64,000 nt of DNA, taken from contig CAVQEQ010000004.1 in NCBI GenBank assembly GCA_963711565.1, forward strand, positions 1,504,001 to 1,568,000, read 5' to 3'. The position numbers and the translations under genes are program-made. The notes beneath the pieces are model-generated. The model saw nothing but the letters and a program-made list of their open reading frames with translations, was not told the DNA's origin and searched no databases. The DNA comes from an uncultured delta proteobacterium. Its GTDB lineage: Bacteria > Desulfobacterota > Binatia > Binatales > Binataceae. This document shows positions 19,480-61,011 of the stretch, piece after piece. Within the stretch, counting starts at the first letter, position 1. Each line of letters starts with the position of its first letter.

Positions 19480-22131
19480 TCAATGGTCACCGATGCTGCG
19501 GCTGATTTCGAGCCAGTTGGTGCCGTCCCACTTGAGCCTCAGCACGTCGACTGAGCCGCTCGCGATGCTCGAGGTTGGCGCGGCGCCGCCGGTCCACTTG
19601 ATTGCGCCGGTTGATGTCGCCCACAACGGCCCCGCCGCTACCGCGCTGGTGATGTAGGACTCGATAGTTACGACCTGGTCCGCCACCAGCCCGGTTGTCG
19701 ACAGCGTGTAGGTGAGTCCCGTCGTTGCGGTGAACAGTTTCTGGCATGAGTTGGTTGAGAACGCGAGCGTCGTGTTGGCCGAAACCGTTCCAACGTTCGA
19801 GCAGGCTTCGATGTTCGATGCGTGGTTCAAGTACCCGACCCGGACGACGCCGCTCGCCAGCCAGTCGGTGAACTCCGTGAAGATCATCGAGTCGGGCGCG
19901 TTGCTGCCGTCACCGTTACGAAACGGGCTCGGGTCGCCGTAACTGTTCTGCATCGAGAAGATCGGCTGCGGGTTGGGCGCGTTGCCGTTGCTGATTCCGC
20001 AAACCGTGGTACCGCCGCCGCAGACCCAGGAGCTCTTGATTGCGGTCGGCCGATTCAACTGCATCAGGAATCCGTTGGGCCCCGGAGCGCCGGCGATTCG
20101 AGTCGCATCGATGATGAAGTTGGAACCGACGTTGTTGGTGTCGAAGATGAAGTATTGCGCGTCCTCGCTGGTCACGCCGGAGAACATCATGTTGCCGTCG
20201 GCGCCGCCGCCGAAGCGATCGACGGTCCACGCCTCGATCTTGTTCTGCTCGAAGTCGGTGCCGTAAATTTCGAGCTGGCCGACGAAGTCCGACATGATCG
20301 CAACGTCGTGGCCCTGGATCAGGCCGCCGCGGATCTCCTCGTTGTAGGTCTGGCCGGCGCCGCCGAAGAAGTAGCCCCACATGCCACCCTGCCCGTTCGA
20401 TGGATTCGAGATCTGCACGTCGTGAAAACTCAGGTTCTGGACGTTGCCGGCGGATTGATTCGCGACGCGAATGCCGATGCCCGCGCGGCCAAGGGCCAGC
20501 CGCTCGAAAGTATCGTGCTGGGTCGCGAGGCCGTCGCCACCGCCGCCGGTCGCGTAGTTGTCCACGTCGATTATCACGCCGGCTGTGTTTCCGTTGATGC
20601 CCGAGACCGACAGCCCTGCGACTCGCGAGTCGGCCGCCTTGTTCATATTGATGACGGTGCCGCCGGTCACGCCGTGCCATTCCAGTTCGACCGGATGTCC
20701 GCCATCGCCGTTCTGCGCGCCGGTGAGCGAGAGCGTGACGCCCCAGCATCCGTAGAGATTGAGCGACTGGCCGAGCGGATAAGCGGAGGTCGCGGGAAAT
20801 TCGACGATTCCGCCGACGGTCGCGCCGGTCGCCGTGTGCGAGCAAATCGAACTTATGGCGGCGTTGATCGGGACGCTGTCGTCGTGACGCATCGTGAACG
20901 AGCCCGTCTGCGCGGGCGCTATAGACAACGTCACGCTGACGCCGTTCACGCCGGTAATTTGCGCGAACAGATCCTGCACCACGGCGCTCGAGCCAAGCGC
21001 GGTGCCGAAATCTTCATCGGTGCCGAAAGCGTGTCCGAAGTCGCGATAGGATTCGGCCGTCGCGCCCGGCGCACCGGCGTGAGGCACGACCGCGTGCAGG
21101 CTGGGCGTGCATCCGGCGCCGCTGCACGAATAGACCAGATACGCGATGTCATTCGCCGCGCCGGTCCAGCTCACCAGCAGATTGTTGTTGGTGCTGAGCG
21201 TCGCCGGTCCCGCGCTGGTCGAAACCGCCGCGGTCGGCGCCGACCATCCGCCGCCATTGCTCACGCCGACAATTTGATAGGTGTAGGAAACGTTGCATGC
21301 GCTGTTGTGCGCGGGGTTGCCGGTTTGCGAATCAACCTCGCATCCGCCGCCATTGGCCACGGACTTGGTGATATCCGAAGTCGGATTCGGATTCATGCCG
21401 TAGCTGTTCGGGACGACCGTCACGCCGGTCGGCGGATTCGCATTCGAGGCGGCGCCCGCATGATCGATCTTGATCCAATTGCCGACTTTGAAGTCGGCGA
21501 TCGAATTTACCGTGATGACGGCATTACTTGCACTGGTGGTCGCGGTCACGGTCGCGAGTGAGCCGGTCGCGCCGAACGCTCTCACGTTTTTGACGCCGTT
21601 GAGGCTGACGTTCGCGATCGCGTCGCTGCCGTCGAGCTTCGAGCCCGACAGCGTGTTGAGCTGCGCCCCGGTCTGTCCGAACGCGAGCGCGTCGCCGTTG
21701 ATTGTGCCGCTGGCCAGGTTCGAGACCTTGTTGCCGTTCGCGTTCAGAGTGGCTTCCAGAGCCGCGCCCGCGCATGCCCACTGGCCGCGAGTACCGAGAG
21801 CATAGGCGCCGTCGCCACCGCTCACGCACGGCGTCGCGCTCCTGCAATTCTCGCAGTAGAGGAGCATCCCGTCCTGCTCGCGCGGCAGATTGGCAAAGGT
21901 CGGAGTGGTTATCGAAGGCGCGATCGGCTGGGCGCCGGAAAATCGCTCGTTGATAGCCTCGCGGAACTGCAAGCCCGCGCCGACGCCGGTGAAGTTGGGA
22001 ATCGGCTGATACGATCCCGGCGGCGGAAGATTCTGTGCCGATGCCCCCGCGCTCAGGACGAGCAAGATCATCGCGGTGATCGTCATGCGCGGAATCGCCG
22101 GCAAAGTCTTTCTCTTCGATTTCTTCATCAT
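19480..22131 (-). CDS. tailspike-like pectate-lyase beta-helix protein with N-terminal signal peptide
   Basis: VKNVRAFGATG, DDSVPINAAI, GGIVEFP..Y motifs; last gene of tail operon; MMKKSKRK...MILLVLSAGASA signal. Confidence 0.6.
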   Translation of the reverse strand: MMKKSKRKTLPAIPRMTITAMILLVLSAGASAQNLPPPGSYQPIPNFTGVGAGLQFREAINERFSGAQPIAPSITTPTFANLPREQDGMLLYCENCRSATPCVSGGDGAYALGTRGQWACAGAALEATLNANGNKVSNLASGTINGDALAFGQTGAQLNTLSGSKLDGSDAIANVSLNGVKNVRAFGATGSLATVTATTSASNAVITVNSIADFKVGNWIKIDHAGAASNANPPTGVTVVPNSYGMNPNPTSDITKSVANGGGCEVDSQTGNPAHNSACNVSYTYQIVGVSNGGGWSAPTAAVSTSAGPATLSTNNNLLVSWTGAANDIAYLVYSCSGAGCTPSLHAVVPHAGAPGATAESYRDFGHAFGTDEDFGTALGSSAVVQDLFAQITGVNGVSVTLSIAPAQTGSFTMRHDDSVPINAAISSICSHTATGATVGGIVEFPATSAYPLGQSLNLYGCWGVTLSLTGAQNGDGGHPVELEWHGVTGGTVINMNKAADSRVAGLSVSGINGNTAGVIIDVDNYATGGGGDGLATQHDTFERLALGRAGIGIRVANQSAGNVQNLSFHDVQISNPSNGQGGMWGYFFGGAGQTYNEEIRGGLIQGHDVAIMSDFVGQLEIYGTDFEQNKIEAWTVDRFGGGADGNMMFSGVTSEDAQYFIFDTNNVGSNFIIDATRIAGAPGPNGFLMQLNRPTAIKSSWVCGGGTTVCGISNGNAPNPQPIFSMQNSYGDPSPFRNGDGSNAPDSMIFTEFTDWLASGVVRVGYLNHASNIEACSNVGTVSANTTLAFSTNSCQKLFTATTGLTYTLSTTGLVADQVVTIESYITSAVAAGPLWATSTGAIKWTGGAAPTSSIASGSVDVLRLKWDGTNWLEISRSIGDH

Positions 22132-22153
22132 CGATCGCTCGTCGCCGACAATC

Positions 22154-22715
22154 TCAGAATCCAATTGCCATCCAGTAAAAGCCATCGTTCGGTGCCTGGC
22201 CGCCCTCGCCGCCGATCAAGTCTGAGCGAAAGGTTCCCGCGGTGGTTGTGAAACTGACTATATCGATTATCAACTTGCCGGTGTTGTTCAGCGCGCGCGA
22301 GTTCGACAGCGTCGCCATCGACCATACGCATGCGTTGGGAAAAGCCTTCGGCCACGTCACTGCATAGCTGGTATCGTCGGCGAGCCCGCCGCCCGGAAAC
22401 ATCGCGCCCCACTGGACGATCGCCACGATCGAGCCGCGATTGATGTCGGCGAGCGGAATAGCCAGGTAGCCGTTTGCACCCATCGCGCCGGCAAAGTTCG
22501 TCATGAACGCCTGCAACACGCCGATGTTCGCGATGTTGACGTTCCTGGCGCTGTTTCAGGAACGCGGTGCGATTAGCCAGTTGCTGATGCGGTTGATTCG
22601 AGACGCCGGTGCCGCTGAAACTCGCGCCGGTGGCGGCGCCTTCGACCGGATCGGTCGCCTGAATCTGGTAAACCTCATTCGAGGTGAACTCTGCTGCGTC
22701 GATTAGTGTAGCCAT
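22154..22715 (-). pseudogene. short tail-fibre protein (gp53-like C-terminus), frameshifted by one extra A near 22542
   Basis: N-part EVYQI...DPV...NQPHQQLANRTAFLK and C-part NGYLAIP...IVQWG...VTWPKAFPNAC...YWMAIG lie in different frames. Confidence 0.75.
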
Positions 22716-22723
22716 TGACTACC

Positions 22724-23188
22724 TCAGAAGGTAAGCGTCCACGTACCGCTAATACTCATTCCCGCGCCAAATACTATTGGTGCAATAGTCTTGCGCGCGA
22801 GCATCGGGGTCGGCGCAGTCGTTCCCGGCAACACGGCGCTCGCTTGATTCGCGAAGATCGCGAGCTCCTGGATTGTGATCCCCTGCGCGCCGGTGTCGGC
22901 CGTCGTCAGCGACCAGTTGAGCGTCAAGCCGCCGTTGCCGTCCTCGCTGTGGCCGTCGAGCGCCTTGTAATATGCGGGCGCGGTCAGCGCAGTGTCGGTA
23001 ATCGTCGGCGCATTCGAGCCGGTGCCGAAGCCCACCGCCGCCGCGAATTCGCCCGCGGTATCGCCGCCGAGCAGGGCAGCCAGCGCGGGCAGCCCGGCGT
23101 TGACGAAAAGGTTGCGGCCTTCGTATTCCCACGCGACGCGGCCTCGATCGACAAGACGGATTCGCACGATTCCAATCGGCCTTCTCAT
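22724..23188 (-). CDS. phage tail/baseplate-distal hypothetical protein
   Basis: NLFVNAG...GFGTG...DTAL...IQELAIF..LARKT pattern seen in tail-fibre-adjacent proteins; operon position. Confidence 0.65.
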   Translation of the reverse strand: MRRPIGIVRIRLVDRGRVAWEYEGRNLFVNAGLPALAALLGGDTAGEFAAAVGFGTGSNAPTITDTALTAPAYYKALDGHSEDGNGGLTLNWSLTTADTGAQGITIQELAIFANQASAVLPGTTAPTPMLARKTIAPIVFGAGMSISGTWTLTF

Positions 23189-23189: not shown

Positions 23190-24053
23190 TTAACCTCCGT
23201 GCAAGACTGCTGCGCCGTTGACGATCAGCGCCGAGTCCGCAACCGCGGGTTCGTTGACGCCGTAAGTAATCCCGCTATGCAGATAGTGACCGTCGTAAGC
23301 GGGGACAATCGGACCGTACGCATCGGTCGAGGAGCCCGTCGCGATCGTAAATGCGAGAGCGTTGTCATTGGGCGCGCGCGCCGCGTCGAGCTGGTACTCG
23401 ACGGTTCCGCCGAGCGTCAAACTGTCCGCGGGCACGGGCCCCGCGTCGGAAATCGCGGGCACCGCGAACCATAGCGAGTCGAGCCACGCTCGCGCCGGCT
23501 TGAAGAAATTAACCGCGGCCACGGCAGTGGACGCCGCACCGATTGAAACGCCCTGCCCCGCCGCGAGATCGATCATCACCCGAAACGCAGCCCATCCCTG
23601 GCTCGACGGATACGCATCGCCGCCCCAGCTCGTCTGACCTTCGAGCAGCGTGACCTGCGTCCATCCGAGCGAGCCGAGCGCATTCTTGATCGCCGACGGC
23701 GTGCCGCGAAATCGATGGAGCCCGATCGCGTTCTGGAGCAGCTCGCGCTGCGCCGCTTCGGTGAGAGCCAGCTCCGTGACCTGACCGCCGGATTCGATCA
23801 GATTGTCGACGTCGATTAGCAAATCGATGTTGGTGAGCGCGTCAACGCCGAGCGCGACCGGCGCGATCAACTGCCAGAGAGGAGACAGGATATCGAACTG
23901 CCACGCGAGGAAGGGCAAGGCGCCGGCGATCACCGAGTCGATGCGGTAAACCAGCAGCGTCGTAAGATCGAGCGCCGCGAGCCGCGCGATCAACACCAGC
24001 AGCGCCTGCGTGCGCGTATCGTCGATCGAAGGCGCGGCCGAAAGCTCGGGCAT
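23190..24053 (-). CDS. phage tail protein I (P2 gpI-like baseplate wedge)
   Basis: LPFLAWQFD, RELLQNAIGLHRFRGTPSAIK, KPAR. Confidence 0.85.
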   Translation of the reverse strand: MPELSAAPSIDDTRTQALLVLIARLAALDLTTLLVYRIDSVIAGALPFLAWQFDILSPLWQLIAPVALGVDALTNIDLLIDVDNLIESGGQVTELALTEAAQRELLQNAIGLHRFRGTPSAIKNALGSLGWTQVTLLEGQTSWGGDAYPSSQGWAAFRVMIDLAAGQGVSIGAASTAVAAVNFFKPARAWLDSLWFAVPAISDAGPVPADSLTLGGTVEYQLDAARAPNDNALAFTIATGSSTDAYGPIVPAYDGHYLHSGITYGVNEPAVADSALIVNGAAVLHGG

Positions 24054-25225
24054 CAGCTGTGCTCCTTGCTGAACGCGGTCGTCAGCGAGATCATCGTGCA
24101 GTTCGCCCATTGGCCAGCCGTGAGAGGAGTCAGCGTCGGCGAGGTGAGCGTCACGCCATAGACGCCGGCGACGGACAGCGCCGCGATTATCTGGCTCGGC
24201 ACGATGTCGCGCTGAATCTTGGCGGCGAGCTCGAGCGCGAGCTCCTGCGCGGCGGTGGTCGCGGCGGTGATCGTCGTTGTTGGGTCGGCATCCGAGTAGA
24301 GCGTCACGGTGGCGGTTATCTGGTAGTCCACCTCGGTCACGGCGAGGACGTTCACGGTGTCGGTGAGCGGACGCACCGTATCGGCATTCAGAACGGCGGC
24401 AACTTTCGCAAGCAGCGCGGAGTTCGCGACTCCAGCGCTGTTGGGCGCGGGCGCGGGCTGTTGCGTCAGCGGTCCGGTCAGCACGTACACGTTGACCGAG
24501 CCGGGGGCGGGACTGACAATTTGCGCGTCGGCGATCGAGGGGTCGGCGCCCATTGCGAAGAAGCGGTATGCGCCGATCGGTCCCGCGACGCTGAACTGAT
24601 TCGGCGCGGCCTGGATGCGCGCGCGGAGATGAGCGTCGGTCTCGGGAGCGGAGCCGCCGGTGGTCGTGCTGGAGTTGGTCACGCTCGCAATCAGGGCGTT
24701 CGGATTGAGCTGGACGCTCACCTGACCCGCGAGATATCCGTTCGCAGCCGCTCCTGGAGCGGTTGCCGTCGCAGCGACAGTCCCGGTGGTTCCGCCGGCC
24801 GCGATGCTGATCGTAGCGCTCGTCGCGAAAGCAAACTGCCCATCGTTGGTGCCGACCAGGGTTCCTGCGGCGATCGTGAACGGCACCGTCAGCGCGGCGG
24901 TCAGCGTGAATTGAAGGGTCGTGACCGCGGGCTGCGACGCGAGCCGCGTGACGCTCAGCAGTTGACCGAGATAATCGAGCATCGGGAAGGACGCGAAGGC
25001 GAGCAGATTCTGCTGAGCGGCATACTGGATTGCGTCGCGCACCAGAGATTCGCGGTACGCGTACAGATTGATCAGAAGGCGCTCGACCTGCGCCGGATAC
25101 AGCGTCCGGTCGGCAGCCGCCTCGAACTCGGCGATCATGTCGGCGAGAATTAAATTCGGATCGAGACCATCGGCGTCGTCAACGAACACCGGCGGCGGCA
25201 GCGACGGAATTCCTGCACTCATCAA
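24053..25225 (-). CDS. baseplate J/gp47 wedge protein
   Basis: LYPAQVERLLI, GGSAPETDAHLRARI, FSVAGPIGAY, VRPLTD. Confidence 0.92.
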   Translation of the reverse strand: MMSAGIPSLPPPVFVDDADGLDPNLILADMIAEFEAAADRTLYPAQVERLLINLYAYRESLVRDAIQYAAQQNLLAFASFPMLDYLGQLLSVTRLASQPAVTTLQFTLTAALTVPFTIAAGTLVGTNDGQFAFATSATISIAAGGTTGTVAATATAPGAAANGYLAGQVSVQLNPNALIASVTNSSTTTGGSAPETDAHLRARIQAAPNQFSVAGPIGAYRFFAMGADPSIADAQIVSPAPGSVNVYVLTGPLTQQPAPAPNSAGVANSALLAKVAAVLNADTVRPLTDTVNVLAVTEVDYQITATVTLYSDADPTTTITAATTAAQELALELAAKIQRDIVPSQIIAALSVAGVYGVTLTSPTLTPLTAGQWANCTMISLTTAFSKEHS

Positions 25226-25258
25226 CTTATCCTTTCATCGCGGTCGGCGCGGCGCGCA

Positions 25259-25675
25259 CTAGACCGTCGCTCCCGGTACTGACACTGTCGTGGTCTGAAC
25301 GGGACTCGCGGCGGCGCCGAGATTGAGCTGCCAGTTGAGCGTGACGTCGAGATGCGCGCCAGACTGCGAGCTGCCGTCGAGCACGGGTTGCGCGGTCACT
25401 GAAACGAGATTCACGCGCGGCTCCCACGTCGTGATCGCGGAGGTGAGTTCGCTGACGATCGCGGGCAACGCCTGGCTGATCGGAAAATCGATGTAACGCC
25501 AGATATCCGCGCCAAAGGTCGGACGCAAGGGATCGCTGCCCTGCGGCGTCGTCACGATAATCCCGAGGCATTGCTCAACGTCGGCGATTCCCTGCACAAC
25601 CTCACCGATGGCTCCCAGAGCCAACGACCAATCGACCGAAGTGATATCCGCAAGCGTGATTGCTCCCGCCGGCAT
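25259..25675 (-). CDS. baseplate GPW/gp25 family protein
   Basis: IVTTPQGSDPLRPTFG...WEPRV. Confidence 0.9.
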   Translation of the reverse strand: MPAGAITLADITSVDWSLALGAIGEVVQGIADVEQCLGIIVTTPQGSDPLRPTFGADIWRYIDFPISQALPAIVSELTSAITTWEPRVNLVSVTAQPVLDGSSQSGAHLDVTLNWQLNLGAAASPVQTTTVSVPGATV

Positions 25676-25677
25676 GG

Positions 25678-26370
25678 TCAGCCCGCCAGCACGTCGGTGC
25701 TTGCCGTCACGATCGTTCCGGTCTGCTCGCCGACCTGAACCTGATCGCCGAGCCGGGCGACACCAGCCAACGCGCCGTTGCCGAGCTGGATTAGTCCCGC
25801 GCTTCTAATTGTGACGTTGCCGTTCGAGTCGATCTGAATCTGCGCGCCGTTCGCGGTAAGATTGAATACGCCGCCCTGGGGCAGACTCACGCTCAACACA
25901 TGTTCGATGCCGTCGTACTTGAGCTCAGCCTGATCCTGAAATCTCAGATCGAGGAGATGAGTCAGAGCATCGTACTGGAGCTGCGTCGTATCCTGGAAAA
26001 ACAGATTGAGGAGATGCGCGACGCGATCGTAGTCAAAGTTCGCGCCGTCCTTGAACGCGATATGGAACTTGTCGGCGCTGTTCACCGGCGGCACGTCAGC
26101 GGCGGAATAAATCGCGCCGAGCACCGCGCCGGCCTCGTCGCGCAAATCCATCAGGCAGACGACCTGCTCGCCGATGTCGGGAATCCAGTAGAACTTGTCG
26201 TCCTGCGTCTTCGCGAAAATCACCGGCAGCCACCAGCTGATCATCTCGTCGTAATCTGGAAACACCACGCGCACCTTCGCGTGCACCGTGTCCTGGGCCT
26301 GGACGATGCCGACGCGGAAGGTGGGATTCAGCGAAGCAAATCGCTCGCGGTATTCGATTATGTCGTTCAT
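25678..26370 (-). CDS. baseplate spike, gpV/gp45
   Basis: VRVVFPD..SWWLPV, WIPDIGEQV, GAVLGAIY. Confidence 0.88.
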   Translation of the reverse strand: MNDIIEYRERFASLNPTFRVGIVQAQDTVHAKVRVVFPDYDEMISWWLPVIFAKTQDDKFYWIPDIGEQVVCLMDLRDEAGAVLGAIYSAADVPPVNSADKFHIAFKDGANFDYDRVAHLLNLFFQDTTQLQYDALTHLLDLRFQDQAELKYDGIEHVLSVSLPQGGVFNLTANGAQIQIDSNGNVTIRSAGLIQLGNGALAGVARLGDQVQVGEQTGTIVTASTDVLAG

Positions 26371-27383
26371 GCGCTAACCCTTCGCGCGGCAATCGCAGTT
26401 GTATATCCAGTCGCGCGCGCCAGATGATGCTTCGCAGTCTCGACTAGATATGCTCCGTCCAGCGCGCCCCATCCACTGAGTAGTACATTGTTGCCGGCCA
26501 CCAGCACTGTATTCCCGGGCCCCTCAATCGAAGCGTCCACGAACACCATGTTGTGCAGATGAAGCAACGCTTCGGCCTTCACTTGCGCCTGCTGCGCGTT
26601 TTCGCAGCGCGCCACGATTTTGAGCGTATCGCCGGTCGGCGAAGGTTGGTCCGCGGGCACCGACTGAGTAATCAGTTCTTTCGTGTCGGGATCGAAGTAA
26701 GAGAACTCCGCGCCGTCGTAGATTCGACGCGCCCGGTTCCGAAATGAGAATCGAATAGTATTCGATCGAGTAATCGTTACTGCGGCCGGAACCGACTCAA
26801 GCGCCGGCCGTTCGTAAAATACCAACTGCCCGGCGCGTACTGTGAAATCGAAGTTGTGTTCTCGCGCGAGACGTTTTAGAAATTCCAAGTCCATCTGCCG
26901 CCGTTGAGTGACACGCGCAAATACGACATCGCTCTCGGATTCGGATGACGCCGTGACGAGTGTCAGACCGTACTTGCCGGCGATTTGCGCGGCTATTTCC
27001 ACGATGCCCATGTTCTCGTACGCCATAGTATTTGCCGTGCGCATCGCGGGTGTGATGTAGGCGGCGAGGCAGCGGATTCGCATCACGTCGGGCGGCCCGT
27101 CCAACTCCAGTTCGTCGATCTGAAAGTCGCCGCAATCCAGCAACGGCTGACCGCTGTACCCAATTTGTAGACTCACTGCATCGCCGAGCGCGGGATACCA
27201 GGGCCCCTGCCACAGCTTCATCGAGTCTTCGAGTTCCACTTCCAGCTCACCTGAAGCGCCGTCAAGGCGATCGACATATCTGATCGCCAGAACCATCTGC
27301 GAGACGTCCGAAGTAATGTTCACGCCCGAATAAGTGAGTATCCATTGAGGTGAGAGAACTGTATAAGACGCGGTTGCAGTCAT
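26367..27383 (-). CDS. baseplate hub, late control D/gp44 family
   Basis: YVDRLDG, CGDFQIDE, Q..DLEFLKRLA, GAYLVE..H. Confidence 0.88.
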   Translation of the reverse strand: MTATASYTVLSPQWILTYSGVNITSDVSQMVLAIRYVDRLDGASGELEVELEDSMKLWQGPWYPALGDAVSLQIGYSGQPLLDCGDFQIDELELDGPPDVMRIRCLAAYITPAMRTANTMAYENMGIVEIAAQIAGKYGLTLVTASSESESDVVFARVTQRRQMDLEFLKRLAREHNFDFTVRAGQLVFYERPALESVPAAVTITRSNTIRFSFRNRARRIYDGAEFSYFDPDTKELITQSVPADQPSPTGDTLKIVARCENAQQAQVKAEALLHLHNMVFVDASIEGPGNTVLVAGNNVLLSGWGALDGAYLVETAKHHLARATGYTTAIAARRVSA

Positions 27384-32892: not shown

Positions 32893-32893
32893 C

Positions 32894-51302: not shown

Positions 51303-51329
51303 CGCGACTTCCACCGCTCCAGCCAAAAA

Positions 51330-52266: not shown

Positions 52267-53640
52267 TCAATTTATCTCCCCCGTCTCCTTAATCGCCCCG
52301 AGCACCGCGTCGCCCGCGCCTGCCTCCGCGATTCCCAGCTTGTCCAGTATCGTCTTCTGACTAACCCTCAGCCCTCGATCCGCCAGCATCGCGACGATTT
52401 CCGCGAACACTTTCGCATCGCTATCGTCCGGCAGCCCCAACTCGATCTTCGGATACTGGCGCTGCGGTCCCATGTTCAGCTCGACGATCGGCCGCACCAG
52501 GTCGCGCGCGAGCGTCGCCGCCAGTCGCTTCGCGTCCGCATTGAGGATGTCGCGGCGGACGCCCTCATGCACTTGCGCGGCGGCTCGCGAGCCTCCCGAC
52601 CTGGGCATCTCAGTAGTCAATGTCTGTCCGAGGACTGCCTTACTCACTTGCGCATCTAGGTATTGACAAAAGCTCTGATACAATTCCGAACTGCCATTCT
52701 GATGCGCCTCAGTAAACTCTATTACCATCGACTCCGGCATTATCGCCGCCGCGTCAGTGCCTATTCGCGATACCGCATTGAGTAGTGCCTGCTTGTCCTG
52801 TTCCGATGCCCCCGGATGGTATTTGCCGACTCTCAGTGGCTGTCCGAATACCTCAGTGAACGTTACCCAGTCCTTTAGTACGTAGTTCTTGAACAGGTAT
52901 GCCCACCCCGCGGCACGCGCGAGACCGCCGCGTATCGGCAGGCCGGCTTTCGCCTTGGCGAAATGAGTTATGAACTTGTAGGGCGCCAGCGGCGCCGTCA
53001 TCGGCTGAATCCCGATTCCCGGGCGCATCGGCGAGTACATTCCGTCGCCGCCAAAATGCGTCGGGAGCCGAGCCTGCGCGTCGCTCTCGACCGGGATCAT
53101 CTCGCCGTTCAACGTCCGCACCAGCATCTCTTCACCCGAGATCCAGTCGAACGCGAACCAGCGCGGGTCGCGCCACTTCAACAGTGCGGGAAACCATTCT
53201 CTCCCAGAGGTATCCCACATTATTTCAGTGGCCGAGAATCCCTTGCCGACTGCGTCGAGGATGTCGAACAGCACGCTGTCGAGCTGTATCGGGCCATCGA
53301 TAAGTACCTCGCGTACCATCGCCGCCGCGCGCTGATCTTCGGCAGAGCTGGACGCCGCCCGCACAACGACATCGAGTTGTGCGGCCGCGTTTTTCCGAGT
53401 GCCCAGAACCGCCAGGTAATGCAGGTCCTTCTCTTCCATCTCCTCGGCCAGCTCGAGGTACAGATACGGATCGCCGAACTCCGCCTGCTGCAGGATTGCC
53501 GTCAATCGTTCGGGCGTAAGCCCGATCGACGGATGCATCACGGAATATATATTTCGCACTCCGGCCATCGTCGGCGCTGCCTGCTCTTCGCGCAGCATTC
53601 CGGTATCCACTTCGCGACCGTAAGCATCATAGAGTGTCAT
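52267..53640 (-). CDS. Mu gp29-like portal protein (DUF935)
   Basis: LYDAYGR, LAEEMEEKD.H, KGFS..EI.W, F.E.FG.P.R.GKY, SKAVLGQTLT. Confidence 0.93.
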   Translation of the reverse strand: MTLYDAYGREVDTGMLREEQAAPTMAGVRNIYSVMHPSIGLTPERLTAILQQAEFGDPYLYLELAEEMEEKDLHYLAVLGTRKNAAAQLDVVVRAASSSAEDQRAAAMVREVLIDGPIQLDSVLFDILDAVGKGFSATEIMWDTSGREWFPALLKWRDPRWFAFDWISGEEMLVRTLNGEMIPVESDAQARLPTHFGGDGMYSPMRPGIGIQPMTAPLAPYKFITHFAKAKAGLPIRGGLARAAGWAYLFKNYVLKDWVTFTEVFGQPLRVGKYHPGASEQDKQALLNAVSRIGTDAAAIMPESMVIEFTEAHQNGSSELYQSFCQYLDAQVSKAVLGQTLTTEMPRSGGSRAAAQVHEGVRRDILNADAKRLAATLARDLVRPIVELNMGPQRQYPKIELGLPDDSDAKVFAEIVAMLADRGLRVSQKTILDKLGIAEAGAGDAVLGAIKETGEIN

Positions 53641-53812: not shown

Positions 53813-55336
53813 CTAGAATCCACGCGCGTGCGCGGCGGCGAATTCCTCTTCGGCCGGTGGGGGGCCGAATGAATCGAAGCGGCCCGCGAAGAACTCTCTG
53901 TTGGCCGACGGGCGCGCCGGGGTGTATGCGATCAAGCCGGCGTCGGTGCGCGACGCGAAGAATGCGAGCGCCGCCGCCATCGCGGAGTCGCCATGCCGTC
54001 CTTTGCCGTCGCTGCCCGCGCGCCGATCGGAAATTTTCGCGACGCCGTTCTCAAGCACGATCGCGCGATGGTCCGCGAGCACGTCGGCGTCCTTCGGAAT
54101 TTCGATCGTGCCGTCCTCGAAGGCAGCCTTGTAGCGCGGCATATTCTCGCGGTACCAACTCTCCGACAGCATCACCTGCACGATGCGCCCGCCGTAACGC
54201 TGCGCCGCGGTTTCCGCGAGATACTGGCCGTTGCCCCGCGCGTCCATCGCGCCGTTGGTGAAGCGCGGCAGATGGTCCACGACGTAGGTGAGCACCTGCT
54301 CCTGGTTGCGAAACGGGATGTTACGCAGCTCGACGACGAACGGCGTGCGCCGCGTCAGGTTCGCCGCGATTTGCAGCGGCCAGATCACGGTCAGGTCGCC
54401 CGAGCGGCCGAAGTCTTCGCCGAAAAAGCTCGCGCGCGCCGGATCGAGCGTCGCCAGCGCCGGCGCGATATTGTCCTCGCACCACGCCTGCGTTTCCGAG
54501 TAGCGCTCCGCTTCCGGACGCCCCGAAAATTCCGCCGGCATTTCCCAGCGCAGGATCGGGATTCCGGCTTTCATCCGCGCTTCGATCAGCACCGAGCTCA
54601 GGTACGCGCCGGACGACGCGCGCGGGACACAGAACAACTCTTCGCCGACGTTATCGCCGTAGTAATCGACAATCTGCTGGCGCCATTCGCGCTGCTTCGC
54701 CTCGTTCCACTCGGTTTCATTCTGCTCGCAGATTTTTTTGTATAGTCCGTCGGCGAGCGCCTCGTCGAAAGTAGTACGATGAAGTGAGTATGGCCAGCGG
54801 CAGGCGCGAATCTCACTGACTAGTTCATTGAAGGGGTTTTGCGCGCCGTTGTGAGTACTGATTATCCGCACCAGACCGCCCCACATGGTAAAGGCCAGCG
54901 CCGCCTTCAGCAGCCCCGCCAAGTCTTCGTGGAAGGCAGCCTCATCTATAACGGCGCATCCGTCCTTGCCGCGCAGGTTCGACGGGCGCGACGACAGCGC
55001 GACGATTTTGTGCCCGGACGCGAAGCGAATGCGATATGCGAGGATGTCGGCGCGCTCGTCCTCGAGCACGATTTCCTCGACCGCCTCGGCCGCCCGATTG
55101 AAGCGCCGCGCCCATCGCGCGGCGGCCTCGATAAACTCGAGCGCCATGTCCTTGTTGTAGCCGATATACCATCCGTCGATTCCGGCGCGGCCGCCGGTCG
55201 CGGCGCCAAGCGCGCGATCGGCCGCCTCGGTCCAGGTGATCCCGATGCGGCGGGATTTCTCGCTGACCTTCACCTGCGACTGGTCGGCCAGCCATCGGCG
55301 TTGATAAGGAAGTAGTATTGAGAGTGGTTCATTCAT
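53813..55336 (-). CDS. Mu gp28-like terminase large subunit
   Basis: LLPYQ, KSRRIGITW, VIDEAAFH, ISTHNG, GEDFGRSGD, HGDSA. Confidence 0.94.
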   Translation of the reverse strand: MNEPLSILLPYQRRWLADQSQVKVSEKSRRIGITWTEAADRALGAATGGRAGIDGWYIGYNKDMALEFIEAAARWARRFNRAAEAVEEIVLEDERADILAYRIRFASGHKIVALSSRPSNLRGKDGCAVIDEAAFHEDLAGLLKAALAFTMWGGLVRIISTHNGAQNPFNELVSEIRACRWPYSLHRTTFDEALADGLYKKICEQNETEWNEAKQREWRQQIVDYYGDNVGEELFCVPRASSGAYLSSVLIEARMKAGIPILRWEMPAEFSGRPEAERYSETQAWCEDNIAPALATLDPARASFFGEDFGRSGDLTVIWPLQIAANLTRRTPFVVELRNIPFRNQEQVLTYVVDHLPRFTNGAMDARGNGQYLAETAAQRYGGRIVQVMLSESWYRENMPRYKAAFEDGTIEIPKDADVLADHRAIVLENGVAKISDRRAGSDGKGRHGDSAMAAALAFFASRTDAGLIAYTPARPSANREFFAGRFDSFGPPPAEEEFAAAHARGF

Positions 55337-55557: not shown

Positions 55558-56163
55558 CTATATCTCCATCAACACTGCTTTGATCTGCGCGGCCGCGTCC
55601 TTGCTCAGGCCTTTGGTGCGGGCTTCTTCCACCTTTTTTTGTACGGCGGCTACTCCTGCGCGGGTGCGCTCGGCCAGCCTTCGGTGTTCGGTTTCGGTTT
55701 TCGCCAGATTCGACACGCAACGGGCCAGGGCGCCGATGTTTACCGGAGCGACGGTTGCGCGCCTGGTGCTGCCCTTGCCGTTGGAGACGGCGAGCACCTG
55801 GAAAAGCTGAGTCTGTACGAGTCTGAGCAGAGCGGTTTGCATTTCAGCGTCGTCGTTTTTGAATTGCTTACAAACGATTCGGGCCTGTTCGGTCGCGAGC
55901 CGGATCGCATCGAGCTGCTTATCGAAGTTCGCCCCGTATTGGCGTATGGACCTGCTCGAAATCTCGAAGCCATTGTCGCCCAACCACTTCGCCAATTGCA
56001 GCGAGCTATGGAAGGTGCCATCGCTCATCATTGCGTCGAGCTGCTGCTTTAGATCTTTGGGCATCCGCTTGATCTTCCAGGTCTTGGGGGGCTTGGGGCG
56101 GTAGGGCACGCGCTTGGGATGGCCGCCGGGTTCCTTTTTCTTCGCGCCTTTTTTCTCATTCAT
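55558..56163 (-). CDS. Mu gp27-like (DUF3486) putative small terminase
   Basis: KIKRMP..LK..LD, L..WL...GFEISSRSI..YG; position before terL. Confidence 0.85.
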   Translation of the reverse strand: MNEKKGAKKKEPGGHPKRVPYRPKPPKTWKIKRMPKDLKQQLDAMMSDGTFHSSLQLAKWLGDNGFEISSRSIRQYGANFDKQLDAIRLATEQARIVCKQFKNDDAEMQTALLRLVQTQLFQVLAVSNGKGSTRRATVAPVNIGALARCVSNLAKTETEHRRLAERTRAGVAAVQKKVEEARTKGLSKDAAAQIKAVLMEI

Positions 56164-56172: not shown

Positions 56173-56487
56173 TCACCAGTACTTGCGCGGGCGGGCGACG
56201 CCGGCGGGTGACGGGAAGTTGTACTCGACGACGTTAACGCCGGCGGCGGTGAGTTTCGCGAACCAGGTTTCACCGCCTTCGTTTTCGAGTTCGAGCAGGC
56301 CGAGATCGCGCAGGTAGGCGAGTTCGCGCCGCACCGTGTTGAGCGACAGCGAGAGCTTGATATCGGCGAGCACGCGCCAGATAATCTGCTCGGAGACCGC
56401 TATTGGACGGCCGGCGTTAACGACGCGGAGCATCCGCCATCGCGCTTCCTCGCGATTCTTTTGTTCGAGATCAATTCCGTCCGGCAT
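56173..56487 (-). CDS. Mu gp26-like winged-helix protein
   Basis: REEARW..L, ELAYL...GL, LT..GV.VVEY...GVARP.KYW. Confidence 0.75.
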   Translation of the reverse strand: MPDGIDLEQKNREEARWRMLRVVNAGRPIAVSEQIIWRVLADIKLSLSLNTVRRELAYLRDLGLLELENEGGETWFAKLTAAGVNVVEYNFPSPAGVARPRKYW

Positions 56488-56773
56488 ACAACCTGTCCTT
56501 TACCTCTCCGATTTCTCCGCGCATTTCCTCGCGCATCGCATCGAGCTTCGCGTCGAGCGTTCCGCTGAAGCGAATCCAGTCCTCGCGGCGCACGTACTCG
56601 AGCGGCAGATTGACGCGCAATTCGGTCACCTGCCGCTCGAGCTCATCGACGCGGCCCGTGTCGCGCTCATGCTGTTCCTCGCGGCGCTTGAGCAGCCATT
56701 GAATCGTGCTGGCGTTGACCGCCAGGAACGCGATGAAGGTGGCGGCCCATCCGGCTGCGCTGCCCCACTCCAT
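56471..56773 (-). CDS. Mu gp25-like membrane/coiled-coil protein
   Basis: N-terminal TM; LPLEYVRREDWIR...KLD. Confidence 0.7.
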   Translation of the reverse strand: MEWGSAAGWAATFIAFLAVNASTIQWLLKRREEQHERDTGRVDELERQVTELRVNLPLEYVRREDWIRFSGTLDAKLDAMREEMRGEIGEVKDRLYAGRN

Positions 56774-56962: not shown

Positions 56963-57493
56963 CTAACGCTTCACGTCCGAGACCGACGCTCCCGACGGAG
57001 CTGCTATCGGCGCGGGCGCGACACCGGTCGGGCAATTTCCGAGCGTCACGGTCTGCGGGACGATCAGCTGATTGCTCGAATTGGTGTAGCCGTACACCTG
57101 GCACGAGAACTGACTCGCCTCGGTCTGATAGGTGGTGCTCATCGACATCGGCAGCGCGGGAGTCTTGCCCTCGCAATAAAGCACGAGGCCGGCGTAATCG
57201 ACCTGCGCCTGCGCGTTGCAGAAGTTGGTGGCCTCCATGCTGAGGGCGGCGGCGCTCGGCACGATCGTGTTCTTGCCGCTGATGATTTGTTTGGGCGTCG
57301 GTTCGAGGAGCCCGCCGCCTTGCTGCGCGCATCCGGGAAGGATGAGAGCGCAGAGGAGAAGGAACCTCACCCCTAGCCCCTCTCCCTTCAGGAGAGGGGG
57401 ACGGAACCTAACCCCTAACCCCTTCCCGCGCGGGAAGGGGAACCGGATGGGAGAAGGGAGATAGGACAGAACGGTTTGGATTTTTGAACTCAT
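56963..57493 (-). CDS. hypothetical lipoprotein in lysis region with REP-derived N-terminus
   Basis: RBS GAGG, MSSKIQ...FPFPRGKGLGVRF...LLLCALILPGC lipobox. Confidence 0.55.
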   Translation of the reverse strand: MSSKIQTVLSYLPSPIRFPFPRGKGLGVRFRPPLLKGEGLGVRFLLLCALILPGCAQQGGGLLEPTPKQIISGKNTIVPSAAALSMEATNFCNAQAQVDYAGLVLYCEGKTPALPMSMSTTYQTEASQFSCQVYGYTNSSNQLIVPQTVTLGNCPTGVAPAPIAAPSGASVSDVKR

Positions 57494-57676
57494 TTCGATT
57501 TCACCTCTGGGTTTTTCGGGCGTTAGATTTTCATCGCGGATCTGTCGCCCTCCTCCCCTCTCCCAGAATGGGAGAGGATCGAAGGTGAGGGTCCTTTTAC
57601 AGCGCGCCTTTTGTTTGGCGCGCGAGTTAAGATTCTGGTCATGCAAAGCCTCCTCATAGGCGCGATGCCTTTCCGT

Positions 57677-58234
57677 TCACGGCGCATAACTTACGTGGCT
57701 TGCAGCGGTGCTCAGCGGGTTCGTGAGTTGGCTCAGGCCGGTATCGACGGGGGTCTCGATGTTCAGCGTCACGACGCCGGCGTTGTCGCATCGGGCGATC
57801 GCACGATGGGGCGGGAAGAGCAGCGGGACCGGGCTGGTCGAAACGTCGAGCGCCATCGCGGTGCCGGGGGACATCTCGCCGGGCAGCGGCGCGCGGCCGA
57901 TCGCACAGTCGAGCGTGAAGATCTGATCGTGCACCTGCGCGCATCCGGCGGCGAGCGTGAGGATGAGGGCGCAGATGAGGAACCTAACCCCTAACCCCTT
58001 CCCTCGAGGGAAGGGGAAGAATCGCGCGCATGACGGCGCGGCGAGCAGCAGCGCGAGGGAGATGAGGAACCTAACCCCCGGCCCCTTCCCGCGCGGGAAG
58101 GGGAGCAAGACGTGGAGGACGCCCCTCCCGCTCCAAATAATCCGGTTCCCCTTCCCGCGTGCGAAGGGGTTCCGCACCATCCGGTTCCCCTTCCCGCGCG
58201 GGAAGGGGTTAGGGGTTAGGTTCCTCATCTTCAT
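57677..58234 (-). CDS. hypothetical lipoprotein in lysis region with in-frame REP repeats
   Basis: Four PFPRGKG-type units before lipobox LAAGC; start uncertain. Confidence 0.5.
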   Translation of the reverse strand: MKMRNLTPNPFPRGKGNRMVRNPFARGKGNRIIWSGRGVLHVLLPFPRGKGPGVRFLISLALLLAAPSCARFFPFPRGKGLGVRFLICALILTLAAGCAQVHDQIFTLDCAIGRAPLPGEMSPGTAMALDVSTSPVPLLFPPHRAIARCDNAGVVTLNIETPVDTGLSQLTNPLSTAASHVSYAP

Positions 58235-58235
58235 C

Positions 58236-58580
58236 TTAATTCCCAGCCGCACGTCCGCGCGCGCGGGCGTAGGCGTTGCGGCAGTAGTCGCGATCGTCGT
58301 GGAGAATTTTGAAACGATCCTGGCGCACGATGTCCTGATCGTGGGTGAAGCACGCCGCCAGCCCGGAATCGCGCGGACACGGCGATTGATCGGCGTCCGG
58401 CAAATGCGGCGGAGGATCGAGCGGCGCAATCGCGATCGCCGTCGGCGCCGGCGAAGCTGCCTCCGGCGCGTCGAGATGCGGTGCGTAGGTCGGCGCGCAT
58501 CCTGCGGCTAACAGGCTAGTCACCGCGATCAGCATCAACAGGAGTTTTGTCTTTTTGTACATCTGACTTTGCATCCTCAA
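58236..58580 (-). CDS. Pro-rich lipoprotein, spanin-like
   Basis: LLAAGC lipobox, Pro-rich, overlaps the upstream holin-like gene. Confidence 0.55.
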   Translation of the reverse strand: MRMQSQMYKKTKLLLMLIAVTSLLAAGCAPTYAPHLDAPEAASPAPTAIAIAPLDPPPHLPDADQSPCPRDSGLAACFTHDQDIVRQDRFKILHDDRDYCRNAYARARGRAAGN

Positions 58581-58776
58581 CGTCGGTCGCAGATTGATCG
58601 GCGACTGCGAGTGGAGTGTCGGCGACGACGCGGCCGTAAACCGCGAGCGTGCCGGTGCCTATCGCAAGCATCGCGTCGGTGGAGACGTGGCCGGTGGTGA
58701 AAATTATTGAGAGGCCGGTGAGGATCGAGCCGAGCCCGCCCCAGAAACCTTTGCTCTTCCAGAATGCTTTTTTCAC
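58516..58776 (-). CDS. holin-like small membrane protein
   Basis: KAFWKSKGFWG...LAVYGRV, two TM segments, follows the lysin. Confidence 0.6.
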   Translation of the reverse strand: MKKAFWKSKGFWGGLGSILTGLSIIFTTGHVSTDAMLAIGTGTLAVYGRVVADTPLAVADQSATDVEDAKSDVQKDKTPVDADRGD

Positions 58777-58821: not shown

Positions 58822-59337
58822 TTACGCATAGGCGCGATTCAGCCATCCCTTGATGAAGTCGACGCCGCCGTTCTGATTCGCGGCGAGCATCCGGTAATAG
58901 CCGGCGGCCTCCGAGCGCATCGCGGACATCAGCGCGGCCGGCTCGGCGCGGCCGGATGCGAGCACGGTCGCGGAGCCGAGGACGCCGTCTTCGGTCACCG
59001 GCGATCCGCACGCGCGCAGTGCGCGCTGAAGGCATTCGATCGCGTGTGCGGCGCCGATATTGACACTGAGGTCGAAGGTCTTGGCGGCGATTGCGGCGGG
59101 CAGTTGGGCGAAGCCGAACGGCAGCCACCATTCGCGCCAGTAGATGCTCACCGCGGCGTCGCGCGTGAGCGTCGCGATGTTGACGCCCGGATGCGCGCGC
59201 GCGGAAATTCCGAACTTGGTCGCGCCGCCGGGGTCGCCGGGATCGGACGAGTAGCCGCCCTCCTCGGCGAGGACGCGTTCGACGGCGGCTAGAAATTCCG
59301 GGCTGTATGCGTCACACGCGCTGTTTGATTGGTCCAC
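58822..59337 (-). CDS. GH108 endolysin with peptidoglycan-binding domain
   Basis: EGGYSSDPGDPGGATKFGI, FD.SVN.G, LQRAL, DG.LG..T, F.KGWLNR. Confidence 0.92.
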   Translation of the reverse strand: MDQSNSACDAYSPEFLAAVERVLAEEGGYSSDPGDPGGATKFGISARAHPGVNIATLTRDAAVSIYWREWWLPFGFAQLPAAIAAKTFDLSVNIGAAHAIECLQRALRACGSPVTEDGVLGSATVLASGRAEPAALMSAMRSEAAGYYRMLAANQNGGVDFIKGWLNRAYA

Positions 59338-59812
59338 GTTTCAATCGCTCGGCGATCGGCGCGGACGTTGGCGGAAACTCGGCCGCGGGCAGATCGGAGG
59401 AGCGGTTCAGGGCGAGCACCTTGTAGACGTAGCGCTCGGTGCATCGGAGCTGGCGTGCGATGCGCGAAACGCTGACGTTGTCGGCGCGCATCGCGAGGAT
59501 TCGCACGCGGCGGCGCGCATGGTCGGTCGTGACGGGAATCAGCAGGCGGTCGCTGCCGAAGACACGCGCCATCGCGAGCGCCGCGAGTAGTCCGATCGAG
59601 CGCGCGATCTGATCGCCGGGCGCGGGCGCAATCGGGACATAGAGGCGGCGTCCGCCGAAGTCGGCGATCAGTTTGTCGGCGGCGTCGGCGCCGATCGAGC
59701 GAACGATCAGATCGTAAAGCGTGGTGCGCTCGGCGTCCGCAAACGGAGCGAAGCGCGGCGCATCCGGCATAACGCGATCGAGCGCGGGCATCCGGCCGGC
59801 GATCGCGTTCAT
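59312..59812 (-). CDS. Mor/C-like late transcription activator
   Basis: IG.DAA.KL...FGG..LYVP and C-terminal HTH SVSRIARQLRCTERYVYKVL. Confidence 0.8.
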   Translation of the reverse strand: MNAIAGRMPALDRVMPDAPRFAPFADAERTTLYDLIVRSIGADAADKLIADFGGRRLYVPIAPAPGDQIARSIGLLAALAMARVFGSDRLLIPVTTDHARRRVRILAMRADNVSVSRIARQLRCTERYVYKVLALNRSSDLPAAEFPPTSAPIAERLKRGPIKQRV

Positions 59813-60030
59813 AAGCCGTACGCGGCGCGCAGATTCGAAGGGATCGAGCCGATGCGGCGATCACGGTCGTAAACGAGGCGCCAACTGATCTCGACGCTGT
59901 CATGGGCGCAGCTTTGACAGAGGCCGTGGTTGCGCGTCGCGTCGTGGGTAGTGGTGGCTTCGTGACACCAGAGGCAAGCAACGAGGCGGCTAGCGGCGGC
60001 GGTACGAATCGGAGAGGTCGCGGGTTCCAT
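59809..60030 (-). CDS. small CxxC...CxxC zinc-finger protein
   Basis: RBS GGAGG; CLWC...CQSC; stop overlaps the Mor start. Confidence 0.55.
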   Translation of the reverse strand: MEPATSPIRTAAASRLVACLWCHEATTTHDATRNHGLCQSCAHDSVEISWRLVYDRDRRIGSIPSNLRAAYGL

Positions 60031-60348
60031 AAATCCTCCGCGCGAGTTGGGCGGGTGTAGAACAATATGACGGCAAAGAAAACAAGCGGGATTGATCGGG
60101 CAGGACGGTCGAGCCGGGGAAAAATGTCGTCGAAGCAGCGGGCGCGAGGTCACGAACTAAGGTAAAGATGTGTAGTCGGTGAGATCGAGCGGCGGTGAGG
60201 ATCGAGGGAGACGCGGGGATGGGCGTGGCGCGGTAACGGCGAGGGAGCAAATGCGCTCGCGTGGGCGGGGGATTCGGCTTGAGTTGGGAATGGTTTGCTT
60301 GAGGCGGGATCATGCGCTTTAAGAACCTTATTTCACATAAGGAGATTT

Positions 60349-61011
60349 ATGTCAACCACTATAGTTGATGCAGCATTTCGCGCCCGGCTGACGCAGGTGA
60401 TTCATTCGTTCGGCACGGTGGTCTCGCTGGCGACGGCGGTCGGGGTATCGGACAACGCGATCTACAAGTGGCTAGCGGGGCGGGGGCAACCCAGCGTGGC
60501 GAATCTGGTGGCGCTGGCGCGCGCGGGGCGGGTGTCGGTCGAATGGCTGGCGACCGGGACGGAGCCGGCGCAGGGCGCGACAGCGTCGCGGCACGCAGTC
60601 GAGCACGGCGACTACATCTTCATGCCGCGCAACCGGATTCGATTCTCGAGTGGGCGCGAGGGGATACTGCGCAGCGAGCAGGTGGTGGATTCGATCGCGT
60701 TTCGCGCGGAATGGGTCAAGCGGACGCTGCGCACGGAAACGCGCGACTTGATCCTGATCGAGGTGGTGGGAGATTCGATGGCGCCGACAGTCGAGGACGG
60801 GGACTTGATCCTCGCCAATCTGGCGGAGCCGCGCTTTCGTCAGGACGGCATCTACCTGCTGCGGCATGACAGCGGGCTGACGGTGAAGCGAATCCAGCGG
60901 CGTCCCGACGGCAAGCTGCTGGTGCGCAGCGACAATCCGAAATACGAATCGATGGTGGTGGCCAGCGTCAGTATCATCGGGCGCGTGATCTGGATCGGCG
61001 GATGCGTGTGA
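60349..61011 (+). CDS. CI-like repressor (XRE HTH plus S24 peptidase)
   Basis: LATAVGVSDNAIYKW..G, VSVEWLATG, GDSM.PT..DGD, VKR, SDNPKY, IIGRVIW. Confidence 0.92.
   Translation: MSTTIVDAAFRARLTQVIHSFGTVVSLATAVGVSDNAIYKWLAGRGQPSVANLVALARAGRVSVEWLATGTEPAQGATASRHAVEHGDYIFMPRNRIRFSSGREGILRSEQVVDSIAFRAEWVKRTLRTETRDLILIEVVGDSMAPTVEDGDLILANLAEPRFRQDGIYLLRHDSGLTVKRIQRRPDGKLLVRSDNPKYESMVVASVSIIGRVIWIGGCV

Follow-up and report, generated by a model that had tools for sequence, protein, structure and literature searches.

A vertically inherited, Mu-derived head-and-tail locus of the Binataceae: a candidate gene transfer agent-like system with putative tape-measure-bearing satellites

Introduction

R-type tailocins, including the Mu-derived ones of Pseudomonas, are domesticated contractile tails with lysis genes and regulators that hold no head or packaging genes, BcepMu-type phages have a P2-like tail, and classical satellites such as P4 and the phage-inducible chromosomal and Staphylococcus aureus pathogenicity islands (PICI/SaPI) take their tape measure from a helper. 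To our knowledge, few gene transfer agent (GTA)-like systems are known outside the Alphaproteobacteria. The closest described counterparts of the locus analysed here are PBSX and the Bacillus pumilus element Bp15.1PLP, which, in the accessible text of the reports on them, are fixed elements with a repressor, a late activator, terminase, capsid, sheath, tube, baseplate and lysis genes that do not propagate themselves, PBSX packaging random host DNA (PMC8347963; PMC12946183). The Rhodobacter capsulatus GTA (RcGTA), as its available description has it, uses a short tape measure and ejects its DNA into the periplasm, from which competence proteins of the recipient take it up (PMC7296036). Here we describe a locus at positions 19480-61011 of a 64,000-nucleotide window (G000:C4:1504001-1568000; G000 is the source genome, whose close relatives are titled Candidatus Binatus or Binataceae), which an initial annotation had read as a fixed, domesticated particle system derived from phage Mu.

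Unlike PBSX, which resides in a Gram-positive host, and the B. pumilus element, which keeps a long tape measure with a transglycosylase domain, the locus is Mu-derived (gpT, Mor and gp27), has neither F nor G, retains little of the tape measure, and lies in separate pieces in several genomes; its family matches are of the Mu and P2 types. Killing has been demonstrated for PBSX, whereas the locus is known here from its genes. It resembles RcGTA in its domesticated late genes, the dispersal of its loci, its short tape measure and, as a prediction for the locus, periplasmic delivery with competence uptake (PMC7296036, accessible text). RcGTA differs in its short non-contractile tail, its host regulation and its small terminase, described in the available text as lacking a DNA-binding domain (PMC11841831), against the contractile P2-type tail, own cI/Mor switch and full gp27 of the locus. 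Mu-like myophages (Mu, the free-type prophage G176:C22 and IMG/VR loci L181-L251) have head, neck, lysis and regulatory genes in the Mu order, as does the locus, and in both G176:C22 and the locus an RRM gene precedes the tape measure; unlike these phages, the locus has no ner, MuA, MuB or GemA, no ends and neither F nor G, and it is inherited with its host.

The family also harbours self-transposing companions, here called mini-Mu elements, which resemble P4, PICI/SaPI and engineered mini-Mu in their size of about 11-14 kb, their own mobility genes and their few virion genes; some, like satellites, carry a small terminase, a scaffold/protease or a late activator. Unlike P4 and PICI, they rely on their own MuA/MuB for transposition, retain a full tape measure and have as candidate helper a host-domesticated locus and not a phage. 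A literature search with most subscription journals outside it returned no description of the locus, of a Mu-derived GTA or of natural tape-measure-bearing Mu satellites, and the accessible portions of PMC8705779 and PMC8987985 give no prior description of any of the three. At the level of function, though, the initial annotation's statement that there is no described precedent is too strong, PBSX being a fixed head, contractile-tail and lysis element that packages random host DNA.

Results

Inheritance and selection

Every gene named by the initial annotation is an open reading frame (ORF) whose Pfam and PHROG family assignments match the name given, and the claim that catalytic motifs are kept extends to relatives: in 39 intact large terminases (TerL), Walker A is present in 39/39, Walker B in 37/39 and all three nuclease patterns in 39/39. 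Within the genus, omega (the median pairwise NG86 dN/dS, from pairs that are not independent) ranges from 0.04 to 0.21 for virion genes and from 0.29 to 0.37 for the Zn-finger, lysin and Mor genes, with host controls at 0.17 (murF) and 0.09 (accD) and dS similar to that of the locus genes. Capsid, TerL and sheath, for which the initial annotation had proposed this measurement, give 0.06, 0.11 and 0.11; unlike in R-type tailocins, capsid (0.06), TerL (0.11) and portal (0.13) are among the most constrained genes, which sets the locus outside that class. Split or frameshifted copies number 0-4 per virion gene against 53-77 intact ones and cluster in a few assemblies.

The capsid gene was found in 46/46 other genomes of the genus, 121/165 of the family and 22/30 genera, and TerL in 124/165 family genomes (a few weak or prophage matches included), compared with 142/165 for an rpoB segment sought with the same tool; a class-wide draw outside the family gave a capsid match in 1/251 genomes, at 37% identity. 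These tallies include seven genomes flagged as unpublished (G018, G023, G125, G181 and G186-G188), of which our other claims are independent. Several genera lack the locus (g25, g39, g46, and most of g43 and g35), and g25 and g39, which nest among carriers on the host tree, look like losses. Comparison of gene and species trees for 36 genomes found 16/33 splits common to the TerL+portal and RpoB+RpoC trees (random mean 0.17, maximum 2) and a patristic Spearman correlation of 0.91; this core set excludes G076, G163, G126 and G121, whose copies group with free-type prophages.

Signs of a transposing prophage are missing from the element, which contains neither MuA and MuB nor TG...CA ends with a target duplication. 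The MuA C-terminal family occurs in 29/165 genomes and not in single-contig G007, and the two MuA/MuB pairs of G000 lie in separate small elements with their own repressors and ends. We therefore rejected these pairs as a cognate transposase of the locus, and the search that the initial annotation had called for yielded no cognate pair or ends. As in GTAs, phage genes are inherited vertically under purifying selection, and the element has no replication or integration genes of its own and cannot propagate as a unit. It is virtually certain that the locus is domesticated, as the late module of an ancient Mu-like myophage that is passed on vertically and kept by selection, as the initial annotation had supposed from a single genome, and the data show one acquisition early in the Binataceae.

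Borders and two-arm layout

Both borders are as tight as first described: murF stops at 19474 and the final gene of the locus at 19480, while the repressor stops at 61011 and DoxX at 61018, so that the 5-6 bp between locus and host stop codons leave no room for Mu ends. The 318 bp between the start codons of the repressor (60349) and the Zn-finger gene (60030) had been taken as absence of the early region, and this holds more widely, since the repressor-to-Mor gap is 382-1200 bp in 33/33 loci with both genes and the early region is therefore missing throughout.

The description of 19480-61011 as one block needs correction. About 16 kb of host DNA (an ABC ATPase, an IS transposase, DUF7948, an NHL-repeat protein, a STAS pair, PhyH and a methyltransferase) lie between portal (52267) and protease (36163), so the interval comprises two phage arms, and only head and neck are of Mu type, the tail being of P2 type (U, X, D, V, W, J, I). 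We sampled the terminase or tail region of about 40 genomes, and 80 loci centred on the sheath. Compact genera place the portal immediately before the protease (L131, L133, L135); outside them, host DNA fills this junction and the arms separate, in some genomes by >200 kb: they lie 1.25 Mb apart in single-contig G007, are inverted in G083 and are without linkage in G182 and G156. Synteny of the flanks, likewise proposed as a check, is partial: murF adjoins the tail end in three genera (g1, g51 and g37), and accD adjoins the repressor in 13/19 g1 loci that could be evaluated but in no other genus compared.

Two further kinds of locus were seen. Gene sets in G076 (L113-L114), G163 (L141-L142 and L342) and G126 (L149-L150) are scrambled and Mu-like, belong to the free-prophage clade and have no G; they are possibly separate decays or second domestications. 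IMG/VR 'viral' contigs L172-L180, L193 and L195 have TerL sequences 69-92% identical that fall inside the host-inherited clade, and are likely chromosomal fragments.

Lost parts: F, G and most of the tape measure

The initial annotation overlooked that Mu F (gp30) and G (gp31) are missing and that the tape measure is only 281 aa. Searches of the 16-kb insert and the rest of G000 with tblastn, Pfam and our own profile found neither F nor G, and our G profile has no match in the fixed loci; F occurs in 13/165 and G in 4/165 family genomes. The free-type prophage G176:C22, by comparison, holds MuA, MuB, GemA, F, G, the same RRM gene and a tape measure of at least 623 aa. The free-type prophage L158 carries an F protein (L158:11231-12622) with a C-terminal extension, which we take to resemble the ADP-ribosyltransferase domains fused to phage MuF proteins.

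Locus tape measures are 253-505 aa (54 sequences) without membrane helices, against 620-690 aa in Mu-like phages. A profile of the 54 matches the C-termini of 9/12 full-length tape measures (E<=1.3e-5), and only the tip matches; a hydrophobic segment is absent from 48/54 locus proteins and present in 10/12 full-length ones. Omega is about 0.6 in the middle and 0.20-0.26 at the tip, and length is fixed within clades (368 aa in 6/7), so far as sequence can tell the behaviour of a ruler only. An apparent complete loss in g27, g32 and g51 was rejected, the gene having moved to a position between gp27 and TerL. The available text on Mu gives 30 rings for its 690-aa tape measure (PMC11915804); if Mu's 23 residues per ring applies, the predicted tail would have about 12 rings here, 11-22 across the family and about 28 in carriers of mini-Mu elements (described below), a scaling that may fail for a disordered linker. 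The connector, by contrast with F, G and a full tape measure of a complete infectious virion set, is whole: portal, gp36 and gp37 are all kept, and in Mu, according to the same text, these three alone form a connector without a stopper (PMC11915804).

Switch and late promoter

Across 33 loci the repressor keeps the catalytic Ser in 28/33 (it is lost in 5/33) and the Lys in 30/33, and the cleavage site is mostly Ser-Gly, not Ala-Gly. In Mu, a late promoter precedes gene I. A conserved dyad element precedes the protease in 64 loci, not all of them from different genomes, and the lysin in 5, and G000 has one full site, at 36213. Its sequence differs between clades with two Mor helix types, a covariation that fits a Mor-activated late promoter, and Mor would bind at the 36164..36230 element. 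Extra regulon sites in G000 were rejected, with 4 loose matches against 2 expected and only the protease site full.

Mini-Mu companion elements

Anchoring on MuA matches, we fetched 19 elements from 18 of the 29 MuA-bearing genomes. Thirteen, the mini-Mu elements of about 11-14 kb, carry a full tape measure of 617-717 aa (one split in its assembly); two of the others resemble larger prophages, two are cut by contig ends and two are small and have no tape measure. Profiles built from the locus detected no capsid, portal, sheath, tube or J in the mini-Mu elements, nor did a PHROG scan of 84 of their ORFs detect any of these genes; hub D, a protease domain, a gp27-like gene or Mor is an additional component of several. 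In Mu, the accessible text reports, the tape-measure tip binds the hub (PMC11915804), which explains the co-retention of hub D with the tape measure. Five, 12.6-13.7 kb in length, are bounded by TG...CA ends and target duplications of 5-7 bp, and omega of the tape measures is 0.25-0.32. With their own ends and mobility genes and no capsid, portal, large terminase, sheath or tube, they have the makeup of phage satellites.

The two in the source genome, G000:C1:1246880-1260179 (L315:1880-15179) and G000:C2:291349-303490 (L313), contain a repressor, MuA, MuB, GemA, a full tape measure and hub D, and no head, sheath or tube gene; capsid, portal, large terminase, sheath and tube are each single-copy in the whole genome, in the window. 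The C1 element has TG...CA ends with a 7-bp target duplication beside a tRNA-Ser gene, and an 88% identical element in G003 lies at a different site. Next to both L315 and L313 lies near-identical sequence of 4.2 kb that includes a glycoside hydrolase; the two contigs may thus represent haplotypes, or the sequence a duplication.

Mini-Mu elements look like satellites that supply a part lost by the host locus, and their full tape measures under selection speak indirectly for the building of particles. The Mor recognition helix C[TA]ERYV is found in five of them and in 24/37 locus matches, compared with 0/11 unrelated phage Mors. Several observations count against a strict link between satellite and locus: mini-Mu elements occur in 15/119 genomes with the locus and 3/46 without it (Fisher p=0.40 from a hand count, not significant), G097, G112 and G135 have similar elements and no close capsid, and 12/13 have no G. 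True Mu-like prophages could also be their helpers. Nor do they carry the late operator of the locus, which was sought in them and rejected (its best scores there are <=14.2, whereas random host DNA reaches 17.3 and a true site 40.3). When IMG/VR was scanned with mini-Mu tape measures, 78/80 loci were ordinary phages with structural genes and none had MuA/MuB within 10 kb; as IMG/VR favours contigs with hallmark genes, the scan says little about the range of these elements.

Gene inventory and neighbouring features

Features of the locus are listed in Table 1.

Table 1. Features of the locus in window coordinates, from repressor to tail end (omega as defined in the text).
Feature	Position	Strand	Evidence
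cI-like repressor, HTH + S24 peptidase	60349..61011	+	PF00717/PF01381, phrog_4; omega 0.14 (n=9)
Small Zn-finger gene, first of rightward operon	59809..60030	-	CxxC..CxxC; omega 0.29
Mor/C-family late activator	59312..59812	-	PF08765, phrog_836; recognition helix conserved
Endolysin (GH108 + PG-binding)	58822..59337	-	PF05838, PF09374, phrog_315; omega 0.30
Holin-like small membrane protein + three small lipoprotein-like genes	56963..58776	-	Palindromic repeats interspersed; omega 0.18-0.29
Mu gp25-like (releasin position) + gp26-like	56173..56773	-	phrog_462, phrog_436; omega 0.18 and 0.10
Small terminase (Mu gp27)	55558..56163	-	PF11985 residues 31-199, phrog_426; omega 0.29
Large terminase	53813..55336	-	phrog_2; omega 0.11
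Portal (Mu gp29)	52267..53640	-	PF06074 E=1e-101; omega 0.13
Host DNA insert	36583..52196	.	Occupies place of Mu F and G; size variable; absent in compact genera; genome rearrangement break point
Late-promoter-like element (dyad + CCTTA, then -10-like box)	36164..36230	-	50 bp before protease
Head protease/scaffold (Mu I/Z)	35024..36163	-	PF10123 E=4e-71; omega 0.15
Decoration protein	34486..34968	-	phrog_1731; omega 0.11
Major capsid protein (Mu gpT)	33500..34444	-	PF10124 E=2e-92; omega 0.06
Adaptor gp36 + tail terminator gp37 (Ig-like extension)	32065..33394	-	PF07030, PF09646; omega 0.11, 0.16
Tail sheath + tube	29943..32027	-	PF04984/PF17482, PF04985; omega 0.11 and 0.04
Tail assembly chaperone + RRM RNA-binding gene	29098..29902	-	PF10109 weak, PF00076; omega 0.18 and 0.06
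Degenerate tape measure, 281 aa	28220..29065	-	C-terminal tip conserved; middle of low complexity; membrane segment absent
P2-type baseplate U, X, D (hub), V (spike), W, J, I	23190..28209	-	PHROG/Pfam; omega 0.12-0.21
154-aa tail gene + short fibre (~186 aa)	22154..23188	-	phrog_5417, phrog_3100/4209
Large tailspike-like protein, signal-peptide-like N-terminal segment	19480..22185	-	Atlas leads only: tailspike/pectate-lyase clusters, scores 0.82-0.88

The free-type prophage L158 has a homolog of the Zn-finger gene and, in the same position, the single-RRM gene (window 29098-29379), which thus comes from the phage ancestor. The small genes at 56963..58776 have no family match and are conserved in the genus; holin and spanin roles for them are putative. 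In Mu, gp25 is the releasin, in the accessible text of PMC9239132. The best solved-structure match of the capsid is 9jod_A (E=6e-59), and its best match in a cultured phage is at 42%. A short Ig-like domain recurs, by cross-matches, in sheath, gp37 and, in some genera, the decoration protein (window 30486-34968). The fibre has 70 homologs with a median of 189 aa. The terminal 901-aa protein has no Pfam, PHROG, NCBIfam or PDB match; it has 14 cysteines and, in 41/48 loci, a hydrophobic, signal-peptide-like N-terminal segment, its N-terminal domain is conserved and its C-terminal parts vary (628-1519 aa from the matched start), and a homolog is carried on mini-Mu L321.

Checks against reads, for assembly errors and depth, covered the left arm. 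Depth across the locus is flat and the same as at murF in runs X1 and X3. The fibre gene is frameshifted in the assembly (22154-22715), an assembly error, because the extra base at 22542 is absent in 4/4 independent runs.

Within the insert, three plus-strand genes at 50057-52136 (an unnamed one of 220 aa, another unnamed one and a PF13578 methyltransferase) lie tail-to-tail with the portal and are kept facing it in several genera, which we read as an old insertion; the first (50057-50719) is conserved and matches unnamed clusters only. The IS at 37725-38897 (DDE_Tnp_1 and DUF772) is missing from the sequencing runs examined, in which 36349 is joined to sites elsewhere at 37549-37553, and is a recent insertion. 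A low-GC STAS/HATPase and DUF4325 pair at 46373-47645, 95-99% identical in G017 (L098), is a recent mobile cassette. Palindromic repeats of about 45 bp form a family between and inside genes at 55300-58300 and 36300-36600, and read depth at 36312-37600 marks the repeat as genome-wide; a tRNA-Phe called by ARAGORN at 57343-57425 coincides with these palindromes and was dismissed as an artefact. Outside the locus, 9161-14934 holds arn-type genes for aminoarabinose modification of lipid A (deacetylase, epimerase, formyltransferase, GT2 and ArnT).

Discussion

What the module does for its host is a separate matter from its descent. Our proposal, which we regard as evenly poised, is that the locus builds GTA-like particles that are filled with host chromosomal DNA and release it into the periplasm of relatives for competence uptake. 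Mu pac lies at the left end of the phage. Inactivation of the repressor, perhaps RecA-driven, would turn on the Zn-finger gene and Mor, and Mor would activate the protease-to-tail operon even when it is far away; with the Mu left end gone, the intact terminase would fill heads from chromosomal sites, the shortened tape measure, as a ruler only, would set a short tail, and the cell would lyse and let the particles out. Host DNA packaging itself is probable, given that terminase, portal and capsid are intact and constrained and the ends are gone. That G, F and the tape-measure membrane part are lost, as predicted from the genes, argues against direct injection into the cytoplasm, and DNA would then halt short of it, as in RcGTA, and enter through ComEC and DprA, which are encoded in 5/5 genomes tested. 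Mini-Mu elements would parasitise this particle with their own full tape measure and often a hub partner, small terminase, protease/scaffold or Mor. The heads could also package mini-Mu satellite DNA, so the initial annotation's view that only chromosomal DNA could be cargo is too narrow. Taken as a whole, a first Mu-derived contractile-tailed GTA, disarmed by losing its tail completion protein and the membrane channel of its tape measure so that recipients control entry, and re-armed as a two-part infectious system by 11-14 kb self-transposing satellites that bring a full tape measure, is a tentative proposal.

A number of observations weigh against this proposal, some of them touching descent. 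In the core tree set, 4/16 supported splits conflict with the host tree, and including G076, G163, G126 and G121 lowers agreement to 14/37 common splits and a Spearman correlation of 0.77. The locus retains its own cI repressor and Mor with no evident host control. ComEC and DprA also occur in 10-11/14 control genomes, and since most controls have both, their presence carries no discriminating weight. The small terminase still has its N-terminal helical domain (34 sequences; PF11985 matched from model position 1), while known GTA small terminases, in the accessible text, have no DNA-binding domain (PMC11841831). Mutants of Mu in gpG are non-infectious, and SPP1 particles that lack the corresponding tail completion protein eject their DNA outside the cell, as the available text states (PMC11099176); with G lost, DNA may therefore not be delivered at all. 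PBSX is built from the same set of parts yet kills rather than transfers, the fibre is fairly variable in the genus (median 68% identity), as would suit a weapon, and the particle is a prediction from its genes. We do not file the locus as a GTA, because packaging and transfer are predictions and because the small terminase keeps its N-terminal domain.

A headed bacteriocin of the PBSX kind, in which host DNA is filler and the particle punctures and kills competitors, would place the same architecture (repressor, activator, terminase, capsid, contractile tail and lysis genes) at a fixed site (PMC8347963, accessible text). PBSX, in the available account, does not inject DNA (PMC12946183), the loss of F, G and the tape-measure membrane helices would remove delivery functions, and both fibre and terminal protein vary among relatives. 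Yet the predicted tail falls far below Mu's 30 rings and a tube so short would have a smaller chance of reaching the inner membrane, the one clear fibre measures about 189 aa, and the nuclease and ATPase sites of the terminase and the capsid are as constrained as core host genes; we consider this reading rather unlikely. Some other host function, such as protected release of extracellular DNA (as biofilm matrix or transformation substrate), decoys or delivery of the tailspike-like protein, finds a precedent in the extracellular ejection by SPP1 particles, and the signal-peptide-like N-terminus (41/48) and 14 cysteines of the last gene's product are odd for a fibre assembled in the cytoplasm; a full contractile baseplate, spike and sheath under strong selection point instead to envelope penetration, which makes this improbable.

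That the locus is solely a helper, for mini-Mu satellites or incoming Mu-like phages and with no benefit to the host, would accord with the complementary parts that mini-Mu elements carry (MuA, MuB, ends and full tape measure). It is nonetheless very improbable, as these elements occur in only about 15/119 locus genomes while selection is uniform and the locus follows the host tree, and a chromosomal helper gains no spread by packaging others. Next to no probability attaches to an ordinary, rearranged or decaying Mu-like prophage, for which one might cite the two MuA/MuB pairs elsewhere in G000 and the few family genomes with true Mu-like prophages bearing related head genes: those pairs sit in separate elements with their own repressors and ends, and the reading is refuted by the missing ends, a gene order common across genera, omega far below 1, congruent trees and megabase splits.

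Most of a family abundant in soil carries the locus, which could thus be a major means by which its members exchange genes or compete. What is lost consistently (F, G and the tape-measure membrane helices) names the parts that a host strips from a myophage in taming it and offers a testable rule. Pieces of the locus filed as viruses in IMG/VR inflate soil phage counts. Mini-Mu elements would be satellites that depend on a host-owned particle and on no phage; to judge by their size, the predicted heads would hold about 14-15 kb.

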